Shown here: piece after piece, positions 12,788 through 45,076 of the stretch
How positions within the stretch are numbered: the first letter of the stretch is position 1
How the letters are laid out: every line of letters starts with the position of its first letter
Source of the DNA: Candidatus Bathyarchaeota archaeon
GTDB lineage: Archaea > Thermoproteota > Bathyarchaeia > Bathyarchaeales > Bathycorpusculaceae
DNA length: 64,000 nt
Assembly: GCA_963811105.1 (NCBI GenBank)
Contig: CAWEPZ010000002.1
Location: 448,001 to 512,000, forward strand
Direction of reading: 5' to 3'
Program-made: the position numbers and the translations under genes
Notes under the pieces: generated by a model
Seen by the model: only the letters and a program-made list of their open reading frames with translations
Databases searched by the model: none
What the model was told of the DNA's origin: nothing

Positions 12788-14902
12788 ATGTCTTTAACAC
12801 CAACATATCCGGGCGTTTATATCCAAGAACTCCCAAGTGGAGTCAGAACCATAACAGGCGTAAGTACCTCAATAACCGCCTTTATCGGAAGCGCAAAAAT
12901 GGGACCAACCGATAAAGCAACATTAATTCACAGTTTTGGAGAATTTGAATCAATTTTTGGAGGACTGTGGACTCAAAGCAAGATGAGTTATGCTGTTTAT
13001 CAATATTTTCTAAATGGAGGACAAGATGCTTTAATTATCAGAGTATTCCAAGAGAAGCTCATTGCTGTGCCGTCTGCGTCAACAACCACAGCGCTGCAAA
13101 TGCCATCAGGAATTTCAAGTATTGCAACATCAATTACGGTTGCATCTGACGCTGGATTTCCTTCAGCAACACCTTTCTACATCAACATAGGCAGCGAGAT
13201 CCTTAAAGTTACAAATGTTGGATCGCCCACTGTTGGATTGCCCAACACCAACTGGACTGTCCAGCGTGGTCAACTTGGCACAACTGCTGCTTCAGCCGTT
13301 GATGGTGCAACAGTAACTCTTGCCACGACAAGCAATAGTGAAGGAACTGCTACCTTCAGAGTAGAATTAGTCACGCCTTCACAAGATAATAACAGTGTAG
13401 CTGTAAACACACCGTTACTAGATAGTAACAACAAAAATGTCTACCTATATCTAATAGCTGCCTATCCTGGAGCATGGGGACAGAATATTGAATTCGAAAT
13501 AGATATCGGATCAGGAAATGTCGATGAAACCCTTCTTCGTTCGGACCCGAGTCTCTTTAGTTTAACAATTAAGTTGTATGACTCTTACACTCGGAAATAT
13601 CATTCCGGAAATTCGGGCAGTTTAGATACTCAACCAGGCAACTTGCTTCTAACCGAGAAATTCCAAAATTTATCTTTATCCGCTGGAAGCCCCAACTTCG
13701 CTGCAACGGTTTTGAAGCAGAGATCAAAGCTTCTCAGAGTACCCCAAGTTGATTCTAAAGTTGTTGGAAACGATATTCCTCCTTCCCCAACACAGCTTCC
13801 GCCTCCTGCATCACCCCCTTCTTCATTTGCGTATACCTTCCAAACAACGGATACAAACAAAAAAGCTGTGATCCAACTAGTTGGATACACAACCAATGAC
13901 GCGTCAACAATTGGTTCTTCCCTTGACTTAACGACAACACAAGCAACTGGCGATGACGGAGGCACATTGACCTCCTTGAACATTAACGGAAAGACACCTA
14001 AAACAGGCTTTCACGCTTTAGAGGATGCGGACATATTCAATCTTCTTTGTATCCCTCCGTACAATGATAACGAAAACTCGTACAACGGTGCCCTTTATAG
14101 CACAGTATATACAGCCGCCCAATCATATTGTGTTGATAGAAGAGCCATTCTTATTGTAGATCCCCCATCAGATTGGAATTCAAAAAGTGACGTTACTGAC
14201 TCGACCAAAGGCGTTGATGTACCATTGCTTACGCGCAATGCTAATGCCGCCATTTTCTTTCCCCGCATAACCATGGCAGATCCGCTCAATAATGGACAAT
14301 TAATGGAATATGTTCCATGTGGGGAAGTTGCGGGAGTTATCGCTTCAACCGATAGTACACGTGGCATTTGGAAGGCTCCAGCAGGCATCGAAGCAACCTT
14401 GAACGGTGTTTCGGATCTCACTATGAACGGCACTAAAGTGAGGCTGACTGACAAAGAAAATGGCGACTTGAACCCCTTAGGTGTAAATTGCTTAAGAATT
14501 ATGCCTGTTGTTGGACCTGTTGTTTGGGGTTCACGCACAATGAGAGGAGCCGATAGACTTGCCGATCAATGGAAGTATCTCCCAGTTAGACGAACTGCTC
14601 TTTATATCGAAGAGAGCTTATACAGGGGAATCCAATGGGTCGTGTTTGAGCCTAATGACGAGCCGCTTTGGTCGCAAATCCGCCTAAATGTCGGAGCATT
14701 CATGCACGGGCTGTTTATTAAGGGAGCTTTCCAAGGAAGTACGCCGAAGGATGCGTATTTTGTGAAGTGTGATTCGGAAACAACAACTCAAACTGACATC
14801 AACAATGGAATTGTAAATATTGTTGTGGGATTTGCGCCGCTAAAGCCTGCAGAGTTTGTTATACTTAAAATTCAGCAAATGGCTGGTCAGGAGGTATCTT
14901 AA
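12788..14902 (+). CDS. eCIS contractile tail sheath protein (Afp2/3/4-like)
   Basis: PTYPGVYIQELPSGVRTITGVSTSITAFIG; C-terminal GIWKAPAG, LNPLGVNCLR, WGSRT, VRRTALYIEESL, WVVFEPNDEPLW, FAPLKPAEFV; AGGAG RBS upstream. Confidence 0.97.
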   Translation: MSLTPTYPGVYIQELPSGVRTITGVSTSITAFIGSAKMGPTDKATLIHSFGEFESIFGGLWTQSKMSYAVYQYFLNGGQDALIIRVFQEKLIAVPSASTTTALQMPSGISSIATSITVASDAGFPSATPFYINIGSEILKVTNVGSPTVGLPNTNWTVQRGQLGTTAASAVDGATVTLATTSNSEGTATFRVELVTPSQDNNSVAVNTPLLDSNNKNVYLYLIAAYPGAWGQNIEFEIDIGSGNVDETLLRSDPSLFSLTIKLYDSYTRKYHSGNSGSLDTQPGNLLLTEKFQNLSLSAGSPNFAATVLKQRSKLLRVPQVDSKVVGNDIPPSPTQLPPPASPPSSFAYTFQTTDTNKKAVIQLVGYTTNDASTIGSSLDLTTTQATGDDGGTLTSLNINGKTPKTGFHALEDADIFNLLCIPPYNDNENSYNGALYSTVYTAAQSYCVDRRAILIVDPPSDWNSKSDVTDSTKGVDVPLLTRNANAAIFFPRITMADPLNNGQLMEYVPCGEVAGVIASTDSTRGIWKAPAGIEATLNGVSDLTMNGTKVRLTDKENGDLNPLGVNCLRIMPVVGPVVWGSRTMRGADRLADQWKYLPVRRTALYIEESLYRGIQWVVFEPNDEPLWSQIRLNVGAFMHGLFIKGAFQGSTPKDAYFVKCDSETTTQTDINNGIVNIVVGFAPLKPAEFVILKIQQMAGQEVS

Positions 14903-15411
14903 TGCAGTTTTCTGTGAATACTGGTCGTTTTGATCCGTACAAGAATTTCAAGTTCAAAATAAAATGGGATGGTAAATACGTTGCGGGAATGAGCAAAATG
15001 ACTGCTCTTAAACGAACCACGGAGGTCGTTAAGCACAGGGAGGGGGGCGATCATAGTTCAAGTCGTAAGTCTCCTGGTAAAACTGAGTACGATGCGATTA
15101 CTCTTGAAAGAGGAGTTACTCATGATCCAGAGTTCGAAAACTGGGCTAGTAAGGTTTGGAATTACAGTGCAGGCGGCGGTTCTGAGGTTTCTTTGAAGGA
15201 TTTCCGCAAAGACATTATAATTGAGCTACTAAATGAAGCTGGACAGAAGGTAATCGCATACAAGGTTTATCGATGCTGGGTTTCTGAGTATCAACCGCTT
15301 CCTGATCTTGATGCCAACGCGAACGCAGTTGCTATTCAGCACATTAAGATCGAGAACGAAGGTTGGGAACGAGATACATCGGTAACTGAGCCGACAGAAC
15401 CGAGCTTATGA
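14902..15411 (+). CDS. eCIS tail tube protein (T4 gp19-like, Afp1/5)
   Basis: DPYKNFKF, REGG..RKSPGKTEYDAITLERG, FRKDIIIELLNEAG, LDANANAVAIQHIKIENEG; overlaps the sheath stop. Confidence 0.96.
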   Translation: MQFSVNTGRFDPYKNFKFKIKWDGKYVAGMSKMTALKRTTEVVKHREGGDHSSSRKSPGKTEYDAITLERGVTHDPEFENWASKVWNYSAGGGSEVSLKDFRKDIIIELLNEAGQKVIAYKVYRCWVSEYQPLPDLDANANAVAIQHIKIENEGWERDTSVTEPTEPSL

Positions 15412-15418
15412 TTAGAAG

Positions 15419-43346: not shown

Positions 43347-43387
43347 TTTTAATTCCTTAGAATGCAGATTATTAATTGGTATAAGAG
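43347..43387 (+). promoter_or_regulatory. Conserved upstream element shared by both cargo genes (second copy 26410-26450 on minus strand)
   Basis: TTTTAATTCCTTAGAATGCAGATTATTAATTGGTATAAGAG-ATG versus TTTTAATTCCTTAAAAAGCAGATTATTAATTGGAACAAGAA-ATG; TATA-like AT tract. Confidence 0.75.
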
Positions 43388-45076
43388 ATGAGTTTTGAGT
43401 CTGCACAAAAAAAAGTTGCAGATAAATCAACAATGAGAGTTAACCATAAATTTTTTGTGACAAAACAAAGCGAACCTAAGACAAACGCCACAAACGAAAA
43501 CGACACCCCTGGAGTAAACCTACGATTCGGTAACTTCCCAATCTACCCTACGACAGAAAACCATTCATTTTCAAAAGAAGCTGTGGCTGCATGTTCGCTG
43601 AAAACAACTCCGCGAGCTTGCCCCTTCGGCAGCGCCTGCCACGCCTGCCCAACAAAAATACAAGAAAAACTTGCAATAAACGAGCCCGGAGACGTTTACG
43701 AACAAGAAGCTGACAGAGTAGCAGAGCGGGCAATGAGGACATCTTCCTCCTTGGGCGGTATTATTTCTTCGTTCCACGATAAGAAACAAATAAAACATAA
43801 ATGCGTTGTTTGCGAAATGAAAAAAGAAAAAGAAGAGGATCACAAACAACTAAACATTAGACGAAGGCTATCAACTGCTTCTAGCTTAGAAGATAGTGAA
43901 GAAATAGCAGATGAAATCCATAACATACGTTTGAGTGGAGGGGTAGCACTTGATACTTCCACCAAGAATTTCATGGAGTCGAGGCTTGATTATGACTTTG
44001 GTGGTGTTAGGATACATACTGATGAGAAAGCAGCTAGGTCTGCTGATTCAGTTAATGCTTTAGCATATACAGTTGGTAATGATGTTATGTTCGGGCCTGG
44101 ACAGTACCAGCCAAGTACACTACAAGGAAGAAGGTTGTTAGCACATGAGTTGACGCATGTGGTACAACAAGGGTTTACTTCTGGCTTATCTCCCACCCGT
44201 CTCGAAGCAGGTTTTTTTCCAGAAAGGATATCAAGAGTGGATCCACATATACAGAGGGAGATTCTCACCTACAATAGTGAGCAGTTAGAATTAGAACCGA
44301 ATTATTATAGCGAGAGTACAGCAACAGTATATGATGTTTATTCTGCCGAATCCTTTAATCTAAAGAATGCGTTGCAGACGCTAATTGTTTCAGGAAAAAT
44401 AGGCACTAATGATACTGGTGAGCGAACTTTTTTCTACAATAAGAACACCTCACGTGCAGAGGCGTTGACTGCCTTTACCATCGCAAGTCTTTCCAATGCA
44501 AGTGAGTTAACGGATGCTCTAATGGATAATCACAATGTCTTTGTTTATAGCCAAACAAAGGTGACAAAAATTTCTGATCTCCTTGGGACTTCTACATTGA
44601 GCACGTCAACCCGCGTCATGGAGCGCCAGACAAGGAGACTTCTGACAAATTTTGAAAAGAACGAAGCAAAACTTGTGTACGGATCAAATTTAGATCTTGA
44701 CCGAATTATGGTGGAAGAGGACCCTGTCATGTCAGTGGGTGGTTATGCTCGCACGACTTATTGGACCATTAACTTTCCTTTAGGCGCCCTTGGAACCGGA
44801 AACTTTATGCCTTTCCTTATCCATGAATTGGGTCATTCCTGGCAGTACCAGCACGGATATTCTATTCTCACTACAATTTATTACGCAATAAAGGGAGTCT
44901 ACGATTATGGCGGAGAAACAGAGCTTGTAGCGCGTCATTCTGCAGGGAAGGGTCTTTCTAGCTTTAATACGGAACAGCAAGCAGATATTGCAAGGGATTA
45001 TTACGAAAGGCTAAAGTCTGGAAAAAGTGTTGCGGCTTGGCTACCATTTATCAATGAATTTAAGGGTATTCCTTGA
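43388..45076 (+). CDS. eCIS cargo 2: leader + DUF4157 + C-terminal HExxH metallopeptidase-like domain
   Basis: EPGDVYEQEADRVAE; LDTSTKNFMESRLDYDFGGVRIHTD..LLAHELTHVVQQ; second motif FLIHELGHSWQYQHG..FNTEQQADIARDYY. Confidence 0.9.
   Translation: MSFESAQKKVADKSTMRVNHKFFVTKQSEPKTNATNENDTPGVNLRFGNFPIYPTTENHSFSKEAVAACSLKTTPRACPFGSACHACPTKIQEKLAINEPGDVYEQEADRVAERAMRTSSSLGGIISSFHDKKQIKHKCVVCEMKKEKEEDHKQLNIRRRLSTASSLEDSEEIADEIHNIRLSGGVALDTSTKNFMESRLDYDFGGVRIHTDEKAARSADSVNALAYTVGNDVMFGPGQYQPSTLQGRRLLAHELTHVVQQGFTSGLSPTRLEAGFFPERISRVDPHIQREILTYNSEQLELEPNYYSESTATVYDVYSAESFNLKNALQTLIVSGKIGTNDTGERTFFYNKNTSRAEALTAFTIASLSNASELTDALMDNHNVFVYSQTKVTKISDLLGTSTLSTSTRVMERQTRRLLTNFEKNEAKLVYGSNLDLDRIMVEEDPVMSVGGYARTTYWTINFPLGALGTGNFMPFLIHELGHSWQYQHGYSILTTIYYAIKGVYDYGGETELVARHSAGKGLSSFNTEQQADIARDYYERLKSGKSVAAWLPFINEFKGIP

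Follow-up and report, generated by a model that had tools for sequence, protein, structure and literature searches.

A chromosomal, probably structurally complete contractile injection system locus with two putative DUF4157 cargoes in a Bathyarchaeia archaeon

A 64,000-nucleotide stretch of DNA from a Candidatus Bathyarchaeota archaeon (hereafter the window; G000:C2:448001-512000, inside a 666,983-base contig) contains, at positions 12788-45076, a gene cluster for a contractile injection system (CIS) of the type known as extracellular CIS (eCIS). Family scans of 50 open reading frames (ORF) of the window with Pfam, NCBIfam, and PHROG profiles recovered, position by position, the CIS gene classes that an initial annotation of the sequence had listed. 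The genes are likely to form three transcription units. Unit 1 (plus strand, 12788-20722) would produce the sheath, the tube, a gp51-like protein, a tape-measure-like protein, the cap, the ATPase, and an 87-amino acid (aa) protein. Unit 2 (minus strand, 30565-27886) would produce a tube-fold hub protein, a 95-aa protein, and a spike split into a gp27-like and a gp5 half, and unit 3 (plus strand, 30803-42586) a PAAR-like tip, gp25, two Cis11 proteins, a wedge protein, and a DUF6519 fibre. At nine gene junctions the stop codon of one gene overlaps or directly adjoins the start codon of the next, the overlaps being typical of coupled translation. All 18 structural genes are open, and they are full-length relative to their orthologues in three relatives of the same genus (G006, G017, and G368).

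Unit 1 starts with the sheath gene (Cis2; 12788..14902, plus strand), preceded by a TATA-like TTTATAA at 12754-12760. Its 704-aa product matches Phage_sheath_1C (9.5e-11; 42.1 bits vs a cut-off of 26.9) and Phage_sheath_1, has an insert of about 130-190 aa relative to its relatives, and matched 16 CIS sheaths in a sequence search of solved structures. The inner tube gene (Cis1; 14902..15411, plus strand) comes next, with matches to Phage_T4_gp19 (1.4e-45; 154.9 bits vs 28.2) and TIGR02241 (2.4e-44; 150.5 bits vs 62.4), followed by the gene for a 281-aa gp51-like baseplate-hub assembly protein (15419..16264, plus strand; Pfam T4_baseplate 1e-10, PHROG 'baseplate hub' 1.1e-9). Between tube and cap, a 316-aa low-complexity protein (16264..17214, plus strand) matches no family, and its conservation in G017 and G368 is limited to the C-terminal ~40-85 residues; it may be a tape-measure-like length determinant. 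The unit is completed by a cap or tail terminator with a C-terminal TIG domain (Cis16; 17211..18515, plus strand; Pvc16_N, i.e. DUF4255, 5e-43, 147.4 bits vs 27; TIG 3.5e-5), the AAA+ ATPase (Cis15; 18516..20462, plus strand; AAA 7.2e-28, 98.1 bits; winged-helix domain WHD 6.7e-15), and the 87-aa protein without assigned role (20459..20722, plus strand), whose gene overlaps that of the ATPase by 4 bases.

In unit 2, the OB-fold gp5 half of the spike (Cis8b; 27886..28380, minus strand) matches Phage_base_V (7.4e-26; 90.7 bits vs 23.8). The gp27-like half (Cis8a; 28377..29516, minus strand) matches only VgrG_rel (3.6e-4) and has 44% identical orthologues in the same position in G017 and G368. 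These two genomes also contain 51-54% identical orthologues of the conserved 95-aa hub protein (29521..29808, minus strand), which had been labeled a LysM linker at the outset; that label is not confirmed, no family match having been found for the protein in the Pfam, NCBIfam, and PHROG scans. The tube-fold hub protein (29822..30565, minus strand), a putative tube initiator or adaptor (Cis7 or Cis5), matches CIS_tube at 7.2e-5 with 23 bits, under the gathering score of 27, and its position before the spike genes is kept in G017 and G368. Unit 3 opens with the putative PAAR-like tip (Cis10; 30803..31153, plus strand), which matches DUF4280 at E 0.02 over positions 9-99 of the 109-position profile and has a 50% identical orthologue adjoining gp25 in G006. 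The gp25 baseplate wedge (Cis9; 31160..31516, plus strand; GPW_gp25 5.3e-16, 58.6 bits vs 27.2) is followed by two baseplate J/gp6-like proteins, of 923 aa (Cis11a; 31516..34287, plus strand; TIGR02243 3e-74, 250.8 bits vs a cut-off of 155.8) and 1008 aa (Cis11b; 34284..37310, plus strand; TIGR02243 2.3e-59, 201.6 bits vs 155.8). Among solved structures, Cis11a matches the baseplate J protein of 9gtp and T4 gp6.

A 693-aa candidate wedge protein (Cis12, gp7 or P2 gpI-like; 37307..39388, plus strand) was picked up by a PHROG tail/baseplate profile (7e-4), with Tail_P2_I at E 0.16 and a 38% identical orthologue in G006. The last structural gene encodes a 1062-aa fibre-like protein (39398..42586, plus strand; DUF6519 6.2e-56, 190.6 bits; GxPGS Ig-like 3.3e-7), in which DUF6519, catalogued as the eCIS baseplate-attachment domain eBAP5 (PMC12923769), is interrupted by Ig/IPT-like repeats. 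At its extreme C terminus, a tandem array of 4.4 copies of 33 bp (42427-42570, 96% matches) encodes an 11-residue repeat that could be a length-variable tip. The tube initiator, gp27-like, PAAR-like, wedge, and 95-aa proteins occur in the same order, at 38-58% identity, in the genus relatives. Sequence searches of solved structures gave for the tube initiator a best E of 0.92, for the wedge a chance match at 0.014, and for the gp27-like and fibre-like proteins no match.

The locus also contains two genes for DUF4157 proteins, the only two in the whole genome and its putative cargoes. Cargo 1 (1027 aa; 23338..26421, minus strand) and cargo 2 (562 aa; 43388..45076, plus strand) match eCIS_core/DUF4157 at 3.8e-31 and 1.8e-32, respectively. 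They are 73% identical over their first ~115-117 residues, a shared N-terminal leader, and 44-55% identical over DUF4157, with no similarity beyond. In cargo 1 the leader is followed by DUF4157 (residues 413-489, HExxH at 479), two LysM stretches at about 600-660, and a 328-aa helical C-terminal domain. In cargo 2 it is followed by DUF4157 (residues 188-262, HExxH at 253), a beta-rich domain, and a predicted metallopeptidase domain (about 416-556) with an HExxH at 479.

The last 288 residues of cargo 2 were modeled by AlphaFold2 with a predicted local distance difference test score (pLDDT) of 92.4. In this model, residues ~416-556 resemble the effector domain of Pseudomonas aeruginosa VgrG2b (6h56) with a Foldseek E of 1.4e-4 and a VIA Z of 13.8 (root-mean-square deviation 2.3 A over 133 residues, 29% identity), the next match having a Z of 5.7. 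The motif residues H205, E206, and H209 (numbering of the modeled piece) are invariant in 58 sequences. Among 83 homologues of this C-terminal part, 72 contain DUF4157, 1 contains RHS repeats, and 10 match no family. By predicted fold and HExxH motif, the C terminus of cargo 2 thus appears to be a VgrG2b-type (DUF4157-class) zinc metallopeptidase. The VgrG2b effector domain is reported to be a zinc metallopeptidase toxic in the bacterial periplasm, and its family was classed as DUF4157-type metallopeptidases that occur as cargo or fused to VgrG or PAAR (PMC6899460). In cargo 2, unlike VgrG2b, the domain stands behind a canonical DUF4157 and an N-terminal leader in an archaeal CIS, and no immunity protein is seen, whereas one is described for VgrG2b.

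The all-helical C-terminal domain of cargo 1, modeled with a pLDDT of 96.1, has 804 relatives at E<=1e-3. In the 60 aligned relatives that were scanned, eCIS_core was found in 23, LysM in 21, and Amidase_3 (N-acetylmuramoyl-L-alanine amidase) in 1. Zinc phospholipases C recur among the weak structural matches of this domain, and a cluster of language-model look-alikes (Atlas) is named 'Phospholipase C family' (0.91). The domain has invariant His and Asp residues, including an H-x3-D-x5-H pattern that may resemble the ligands of the Bacillus cereus enzyme. As a lead, the C terminus of cargo 1 is possibly zinc-phospholipase-C-like, within the P1-nuclease fold class.

Candidate immunity genes were sought next to both cargo genes. 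No co-directional ORF longer than 52 aa follows cargo 2 within 1.5 kb, a stretch with no credible gene, and none follows cargo 1. In the archaeon Halogeometricum, by comparison, DUF4157 proteins are reported to be secreted in a CIS-dependent manner and to have downstream immunity partners (PMC11566945).

An interspacing region of ~7.2 kb (20722-27886) separates the ATPase operon from the spike genes. In G368 the ends of the ATPase and spike operons are likewise convergent, 420 bp apart, which suggests that the layout was inherited and that the interspacing region is an insertion. Besides cargo 1 and a 138-aa ORF, this region contains a disrupted and diverged partial duplicate that covers the 3' end of the ATPase gene and the beginning of the 87-aa gene (21018..21576, plus strand), spread over three short frames, with tblastn identities of 60% and 45% to ATPase residues 498-645 and the copy of the 87-aa gene start at about 21480-21576. 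It also contains insertion sequence (IS) debris, namely an IS5-family transposase fragment (22035..22634, minus strand; transpos_IS5_2 8.2e-7, far under the cut-off and over a partial profile) and an IS701-family transposase in three frames (26597..27695, minus strand; transpos_IS701 4.4e-9 and 3.1e-7), of which a 74-89% identical copy lies at G000:C11:737730-738821. Beyond cargo 2, remnants of the C-terminal end of a second spike gene (tblastn 75% to spike residues 127-162) and of the N-terminal end of a tube gene (gp19 profile positions 2-51, one internal TAA) occupy 46078..46369 on the minus strand; the two are joined head to tail, as would result from a deletion. The initial description of the genes as intact therefore stands for the structural genes, which are open and of orthologue length, and does not extend to the locus as a whole, with its IS701 and IS5 debris, broken ATPase, and spike and tube fragments.

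Comparison with known systems helps to place the locus. Each of the eight 'core backbone' eCIS subunit types (Chen et al. 2019) is represented in the window, Afp7 only via a sub-threshold match, and the Pvc16 cap, the AAA+ ATPase, and DUF4157 are described as enriched eCIS core or marker domains (Geller et al. 2021). Subtype IIa of dbeCIS, which has known archaeal members, is described as having a split spike, two afp11 genes, an afp10-like tip, and divergent afp12/13-like genes (Chen et al. 2019, PMC6899500). All four features are also present in the window, where the spike is split into gp27 and gp5, and the locus fits this subtype as judged by gene content, with a weak afp10 call. The lineage I systems Afp and PVC are built from the same core parts, with sheath matches of 121-146 bits for Pvc2, Afp3, Afp2, and Pvc3; they differ in having three genes for the sheath, an unsplit spike gene, and only one afp11 according to the same source (PMC6899500), as well as Gram-negative hosts and eukaryotic target cells.

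The best solved matches of the sheath are 8bky (220 bits), 8bl4 (212 bits), and 9ezm (205.9 bits), vs 109-151 bits for PVC, Afp, the cyanobacterial tCIS 7b5h, and 7adz. By paper listing, 8bky and 8bl4 come from work on Streptomyces cytoplasmic CIS and 9ezm from a haloarchaeal CIS that resembles a type VI secretion system (T6SS). The Streptomyces systems CIS-Sc and CIS-Sv (PMC10066040, PMC10020575) thus provide the closest solved sheaths, and, as described, they share a cap, ATPase, tube, gp25, and baseplate J protein with the locus. They differ in gene content, which is that of subtype IId (single afp8, single afp11, afp12/13 mostly absent, as reported in PMC6899500), and their sheaths sit on a separate long branch of our sheath tree.

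The cargo arrangement is closest to that of AlgoCIS from Algoriphagus machipongonensis (PMC8894135), which is reported to have two cluster-encoded DUF4157 proteins, Cgo1 and Cgo2, with similar N termini, a central DUF4157, and different C termini, one of the two containing two HExxH motifs, as cargo 2 does here at residues 253 and 479. There, tomography and mass spectrometry are described as revealing a filled tube lumen that is emptied on contraction (PMC8894135). A fibre, a cap, an ATPase, and large Cis11 proteins are further features in common. AlgoCIS differs in its bacterial host and in that release and lumen cargo were demonstrated for it. Its sheath, taken to be 7adz, is also a weaker match (109 bits).

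By analogy with characterised relatives, the ATPase would assist assembly of the baseplate around the split spike and its PAAR-like tip. Tube and sheath would then polymerize to a length set by the tape-measure-like protein, and Pvc16 would cap the tube-sheath. The leader common to both cargoes and their DUF4157 would direct them into the tube lumen, as in AlgoCIS, and a signal at the fibre or baseplate would trigger sheath contraction, driving tube, spike, and cargo into a target. Our reading is that the locus is a chromosomal, structurally complete CIS of the eCIS type, building a particle from which the cargoes would be injected into a target that is more likely to be a bacterium, or another organism with a wall offering LysM ligands, than a kin archaeon. 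We give this reading a probability of about 0.8; its statement about the target draws on the cargo domains and the lack of immunity genes. In a more specific form, which we consider somewhat less likely than not, peptidoglycan or chitin of the target would serve as LysM ligand and the VgrG2b-type peptidase would damage its envelope, and immunity genes would be missing because the producer would lack both such a ligand and such an envelope. The boldest version is doubtful: a cross-domain weapon of a CIS clade of soil Thermoproteota, delivering a LysM-guided phospholipase-C-like hydrolase and a VgrG2b-type metallopeptidase into bacteria, with no need for immunity because the producer's own envelope would contain no peptidoglycan and its membrane ether lipids would have the opposite stereochemistry. 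As for delivery, we lean slightly toward a fibre-guided particle that would be released or exposed on the surface, in line with the DUF6519 (eBAP5) fibre and the absence of a multi-helix membrane protein from the locus and the relatives' contigs.

A number of observations weigh against this reading. Particle assembly, release, and firing are predicted from the genes; no RNA run containing 12788-20722 was found, the only one listed sharing 0.06 of its sequence words. The assignments of the tube initiator, PAAR-like tip, gp27-like half, and wedge draw on weak matches or on position. The genome has a single intact gp19-family tube gene, and Afp1/5 tube genes are reported to be usually multi-copy (Chen et al. 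2019, PMC6899500). The absence of lysis genes noted initially holds in that no lysis-type family was found among the locus ORFs, archaeal release functions being poorly known, and the best solved sheaths belong to CISs that are not released; the word 'extracellular' used at first for the system thus goes beyond what the genes show. For the target, DUF4157 toxins of Halogeometricum are reported to kill another archaeon (PMC11566945), and cargo type alone therefore does not point to bacteria. Cargo 1 is itself of foreign composition, with a guanine plus cytosine (GC) content of 0.494 (0.54-0.57 over residues 121-500) vs 0.411 for the window, and a GC at third codon positions of 0.50 vs 0.26-0.41 for the structural genes; it looks recently acquired along with the adjoining IS debris. 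With IS701 debris standing between its gene and those of the spike, cargo 1 may be expressed poorly. The C terminus of cargo 1 matches Pfam Zn_dep_PLPC below threshold (E 0.033), and its whole-domain VIA Z of 5.7, 5.3, and 4.8 to 1olp, 1ah7, and 8cqm are within the noise for helical proteins; Foldseek found no match in the PDB at E<=0.001, and a PDB profile search gave chance matches only. Finally, the host name was taken from the names that submitters gave to homologues of a flanking gene, four Bathyarchaeia against two bacterial.

The host could in principle be misjudged, with the locus arising from bacterial contamination, from a chimeric assembly join, or from a provirus of which it would be the tail module. 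Many bacteria are indeed found among the nearest named relatives of the sheath, the contamination estimate for this genome (3.49 Mb in 15 contigs, completeness 96.65%) is 4.3%, and the bin contains terminase-like and capsid-like genes. However, the locus is internal to the 667-kb contig C2, which also has a full-length archaeal 16S gene (RF01959, 1489.5 bits) 93 kb past the window end, the genes flanking the locus are of archaeal type, its GC matches that of the genome, and further genomes of the genus contain related loci. The matches to Terminase_6N and Phage_capsid (HK97-type) lie only on other contigs (C7, C6, C12, C3, and C15, of 13-128 kb), which may be virus- or provirus-derived, and no head or terminase gene is linked to the locus. 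None of the 50 scanned window ORFs matched capsid, portal, or terminase families, in agreement with the initial annotation, which had also excluded a TssJLM membrane complex, a set of families that was not searched by name. The Pvc16 cap, AAA+ ATPase, and DUF4157 argue further against a provirus, being eCIS core or marker domains as cited above. A chimeric or proviral origin is therefore unlikely; we consider this whole set of explanations very improbable and reject the prophage and contamination readings on the strength of the archaeal 16S contig, the genus loci, and the absence of linked head genes.

The assignment of the host to Bathyarchaeia, already made in the initial annotation, is supported by sequence evidence from the same contig. 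Four proteins filed under 'Candidatus Bathyarchaeia archaeon' share 85-88% identity with the deoxyhypusine synthase encoded at 4409-5431, 7 kb upstream of the locus, the other named homologues being one each from Acidoferrum and Limnocylindrales. These two bacterial-named proteins (P0183 and P0243; Limnocylindrales, Acidoferrum) are 84-89% identical to that of the window, at least one lies on a short 8.3 kb contig, and they are probably mis-binned archaeal DNA. The genome also encodes archaeal ribosomal protein S8e. The predicted host is an uncultured soil archaeon of the Bathyarchaeia. The structural genes have a GC of 0.38-0.47, close to the 0.411 of the window, which suggests long residence in the host lineage.

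The alternatives that accept an archaeal CIS concern what it does. A membrane-anchored, contact-dependent 'archaeal T6SS', which would remain inside the cell, dock on the cytoplasmic membrane via Cis11/12/13, and fire into a touching neighbor as in Halogeometricum borinquense, is on the unlikely side, if the most serious competitor on the matter of delivery. One of the three best solved matches is the haloarchaeal sheath 9ezm, and the haloarchaeal cluster, also in an archaeal host, is described as having two cis11, Cis12/13, DUF4157 effectors, and an 'interspacing region' with effectors (PMC11566945), of which the ~7.2-kb region here is a counterpart; the failure to find a release function would fit as well. 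In haloarchaea, however, that mode of action is reported to track with a conserved six-helix membrane protein beside the cluster, and the effectors are described as having downstream immunity partners (PMC11566945); neither was found in the window, whose host belongs to another phylum. No protein with >=3 predicted membrane helices was found at 9.7-50 kb of the window or on the relatives' contigs L015, L016, and L188 by a hydropathy scan, which did not use the haloarchaeal protein as query; a homologue elsewhere in the genome would have escaped it.

It is improbable, in turn, that this is a cytoplasmic CIS for regulated cell death or development, resembling Streptomyces CIS-Sc and having no external target. 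The two best solved sheaths come from the Streptomyces work, and neither lysis nor immunity genes were found. Against it speak the split spike, two Cis11 proteins, and DUF6519 fibre-like protein, as opposed to the single afp8 and afp11 of subtype IId, the placement of the two Streptomyces rows of the sheath tree outside a 47-row group with a support of 99 that includes the window, and cargo domains of kinds used on other cells (VgrG2b-type, RHS-fused relatives). Slightly less probable still is a decaying relic, in which the structural genes are open and function was lost after IS insertions and recombination. The IS701 and IS5 debris, the broken ATPase copy, and the spike and tube remnants could be read in this way, and expression support from the RNA-run search is none. 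Yet 18 of 18 structural genes are open and full-length compared with their orthologues, the gene overlaps typical of coupled translation have been retained, the broken parts are the IS copies themselves, and the convergent operon layout is common to G368. We therefore continue to favor a complete CIS that would act on another organism.

The distribution of the system was assessed in samples of genomes, in which incomplete assemblies can hide a locus. A sheath was found in 12 of 36 genomes of the same genus and in 0 of 24 from other families of the order, 60 relatives in all. In a class sample (401 genomes, 131 genera), the Pvc16_N cap occurs in 18 genomes including this one, all of one family: 12/40 in the same genus, 5/12 in a second genus, 0/51 in the other genera of the family, and 0/297 in other families. 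In a phylum sample (401 genomes, 161 genera), the cap is confined to this genome and 4 of the 10 others of the same genus. This patchy distribution, with the cap gene confined to one family among 401 sampled class genomes, shows that acquisition of the CIS in this class was recent and local rather than ancestral. Cap ORFs in the family fall into three size classes (194-199, 296-326, and 410-444 aa), which suggests more than one CIS lineage. In G029, a 400-aa sheath on a long tree branch (C3:1034587-1035702) and a Pvc16 cap (C2:509032-509535) lie on different contigs, and no other CIS gene of the window type is near the sheath.

Scans of genome and metagenome contigs, from which the window's own and nearest records were omitted, returned sheaths of 38-65% identity, and the closest metagenome proteins (P0001-P0004) are 50-63% identical. 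A quick IQ-TREE phylogeny was built from 53 rows picked from the best matches (38 of 80 scanned loci, 5 genus loci, 8 proteins, and the 2 sheaths of this genome), with an arbitrary root. The window sheath falls in a fully supported group of 11 rows, whose members include four metagenome proteins, G006, G017, and proteins named Thermoproteota, Thaumarchaeota, and Nitrososphaera evergladensis. This provides a lead to a CIS clade common to soil Thermoproteota (Bathyarchaeia and Nitrososphaeria).

The second sheath gene of this genome, at G000:C11:862888-864444, encodes a 518-aa protein 29-42% identical to the main sheath. Its neighbors are genes for a ketopantoate reductase, a small export protein, an M50 peptidase, a DNA glycosylase, and an H+-pyrophosphatase, and a second CIS locus on C11 was rejected since the sheath gene stands alone there. 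No further CIS gene lies within 10 kb of the orthologues of about 50% identity in G014, G001, G008, and G002, whose flanks are not syntenic, and the one-contig genome G014 contains the orphan sheath and no Pvc16 cap. A gp19-like match on C11 (G000:C11:666061-666453, 1.3e-8) has three TAA inside and lies far from both sheath genes.

Around the locus, a 151-aa possible transcription regulator is encoded just upstream of the sheath operon (11675..12130, plus strand; phrog_323 'transcriptional regulator, D5-like' 1.3e-5, no Pfam match), and its membership in the system is uncertain. Two PKD-domain proteins with a signal or anchor helix are encoded 3 kb upstream (6658-9695), and a seven-helix PAS histidine kinase 5 kb downstream (50005-51741). 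Genes for a PAD_porph (agmatine deiminase-type) protein, a carbon-nitrogen hydrolase, and deoxyhypusine synthase cluster at 1733-5431, which suggests a polyamine/hypusine gene group, and all three are kept within about 10 kb in G036. In a search for the borders of the island, the downstream amylase gene had no orthologue in five genus genomes, and the synteny that G016 and G036 show near deoxyhypusine synthase was too weak to define an empty site.

That CIS loci are known from archaea, as had been stated at the outset, is borne out by published reports of clusters from archaea of several phyla, the catalogues, as described, listing mainly Euryarchaeota; one haloarchaeal CIS has been characterised, according to its report (PMC11566945). 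The dbeCIS collection covers complete genomes of 2018, and the text of its paper, as far as available, mentions no Bathyarchaeia entry (PMC6899500). The novelty suggested by the initial annotation was upheld in part: a literature search found no paper describing a CIS locus in Bathyarchaeia, although supplementary tables of eCIS catalogues may list such loci. On the other side, a 321-aa sheath homologue in a Bathyarchaeota bin and one of 521 aa in N. evergladensis were already noted in 2022, and cap loci occur in 17 further genomes of the family. What we describe is a known kind of system in a new host lineage.

The Bathyarchaeia form an abundant and almost wholly uncultured group whose interactions with neighbors are unknown. 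Whether archaeal CIS are used against bacteria was stated as an open question in 2025 (PMC12352652), and the locus provides a concrete test case, in that the domains of its two putative cargoes suggest action on bacterial envelopes and no immunity genes were found beside them. The cargo domains could be tested in ordinary laboratory hosts, for which culture of the archaeon would be unnecessary.

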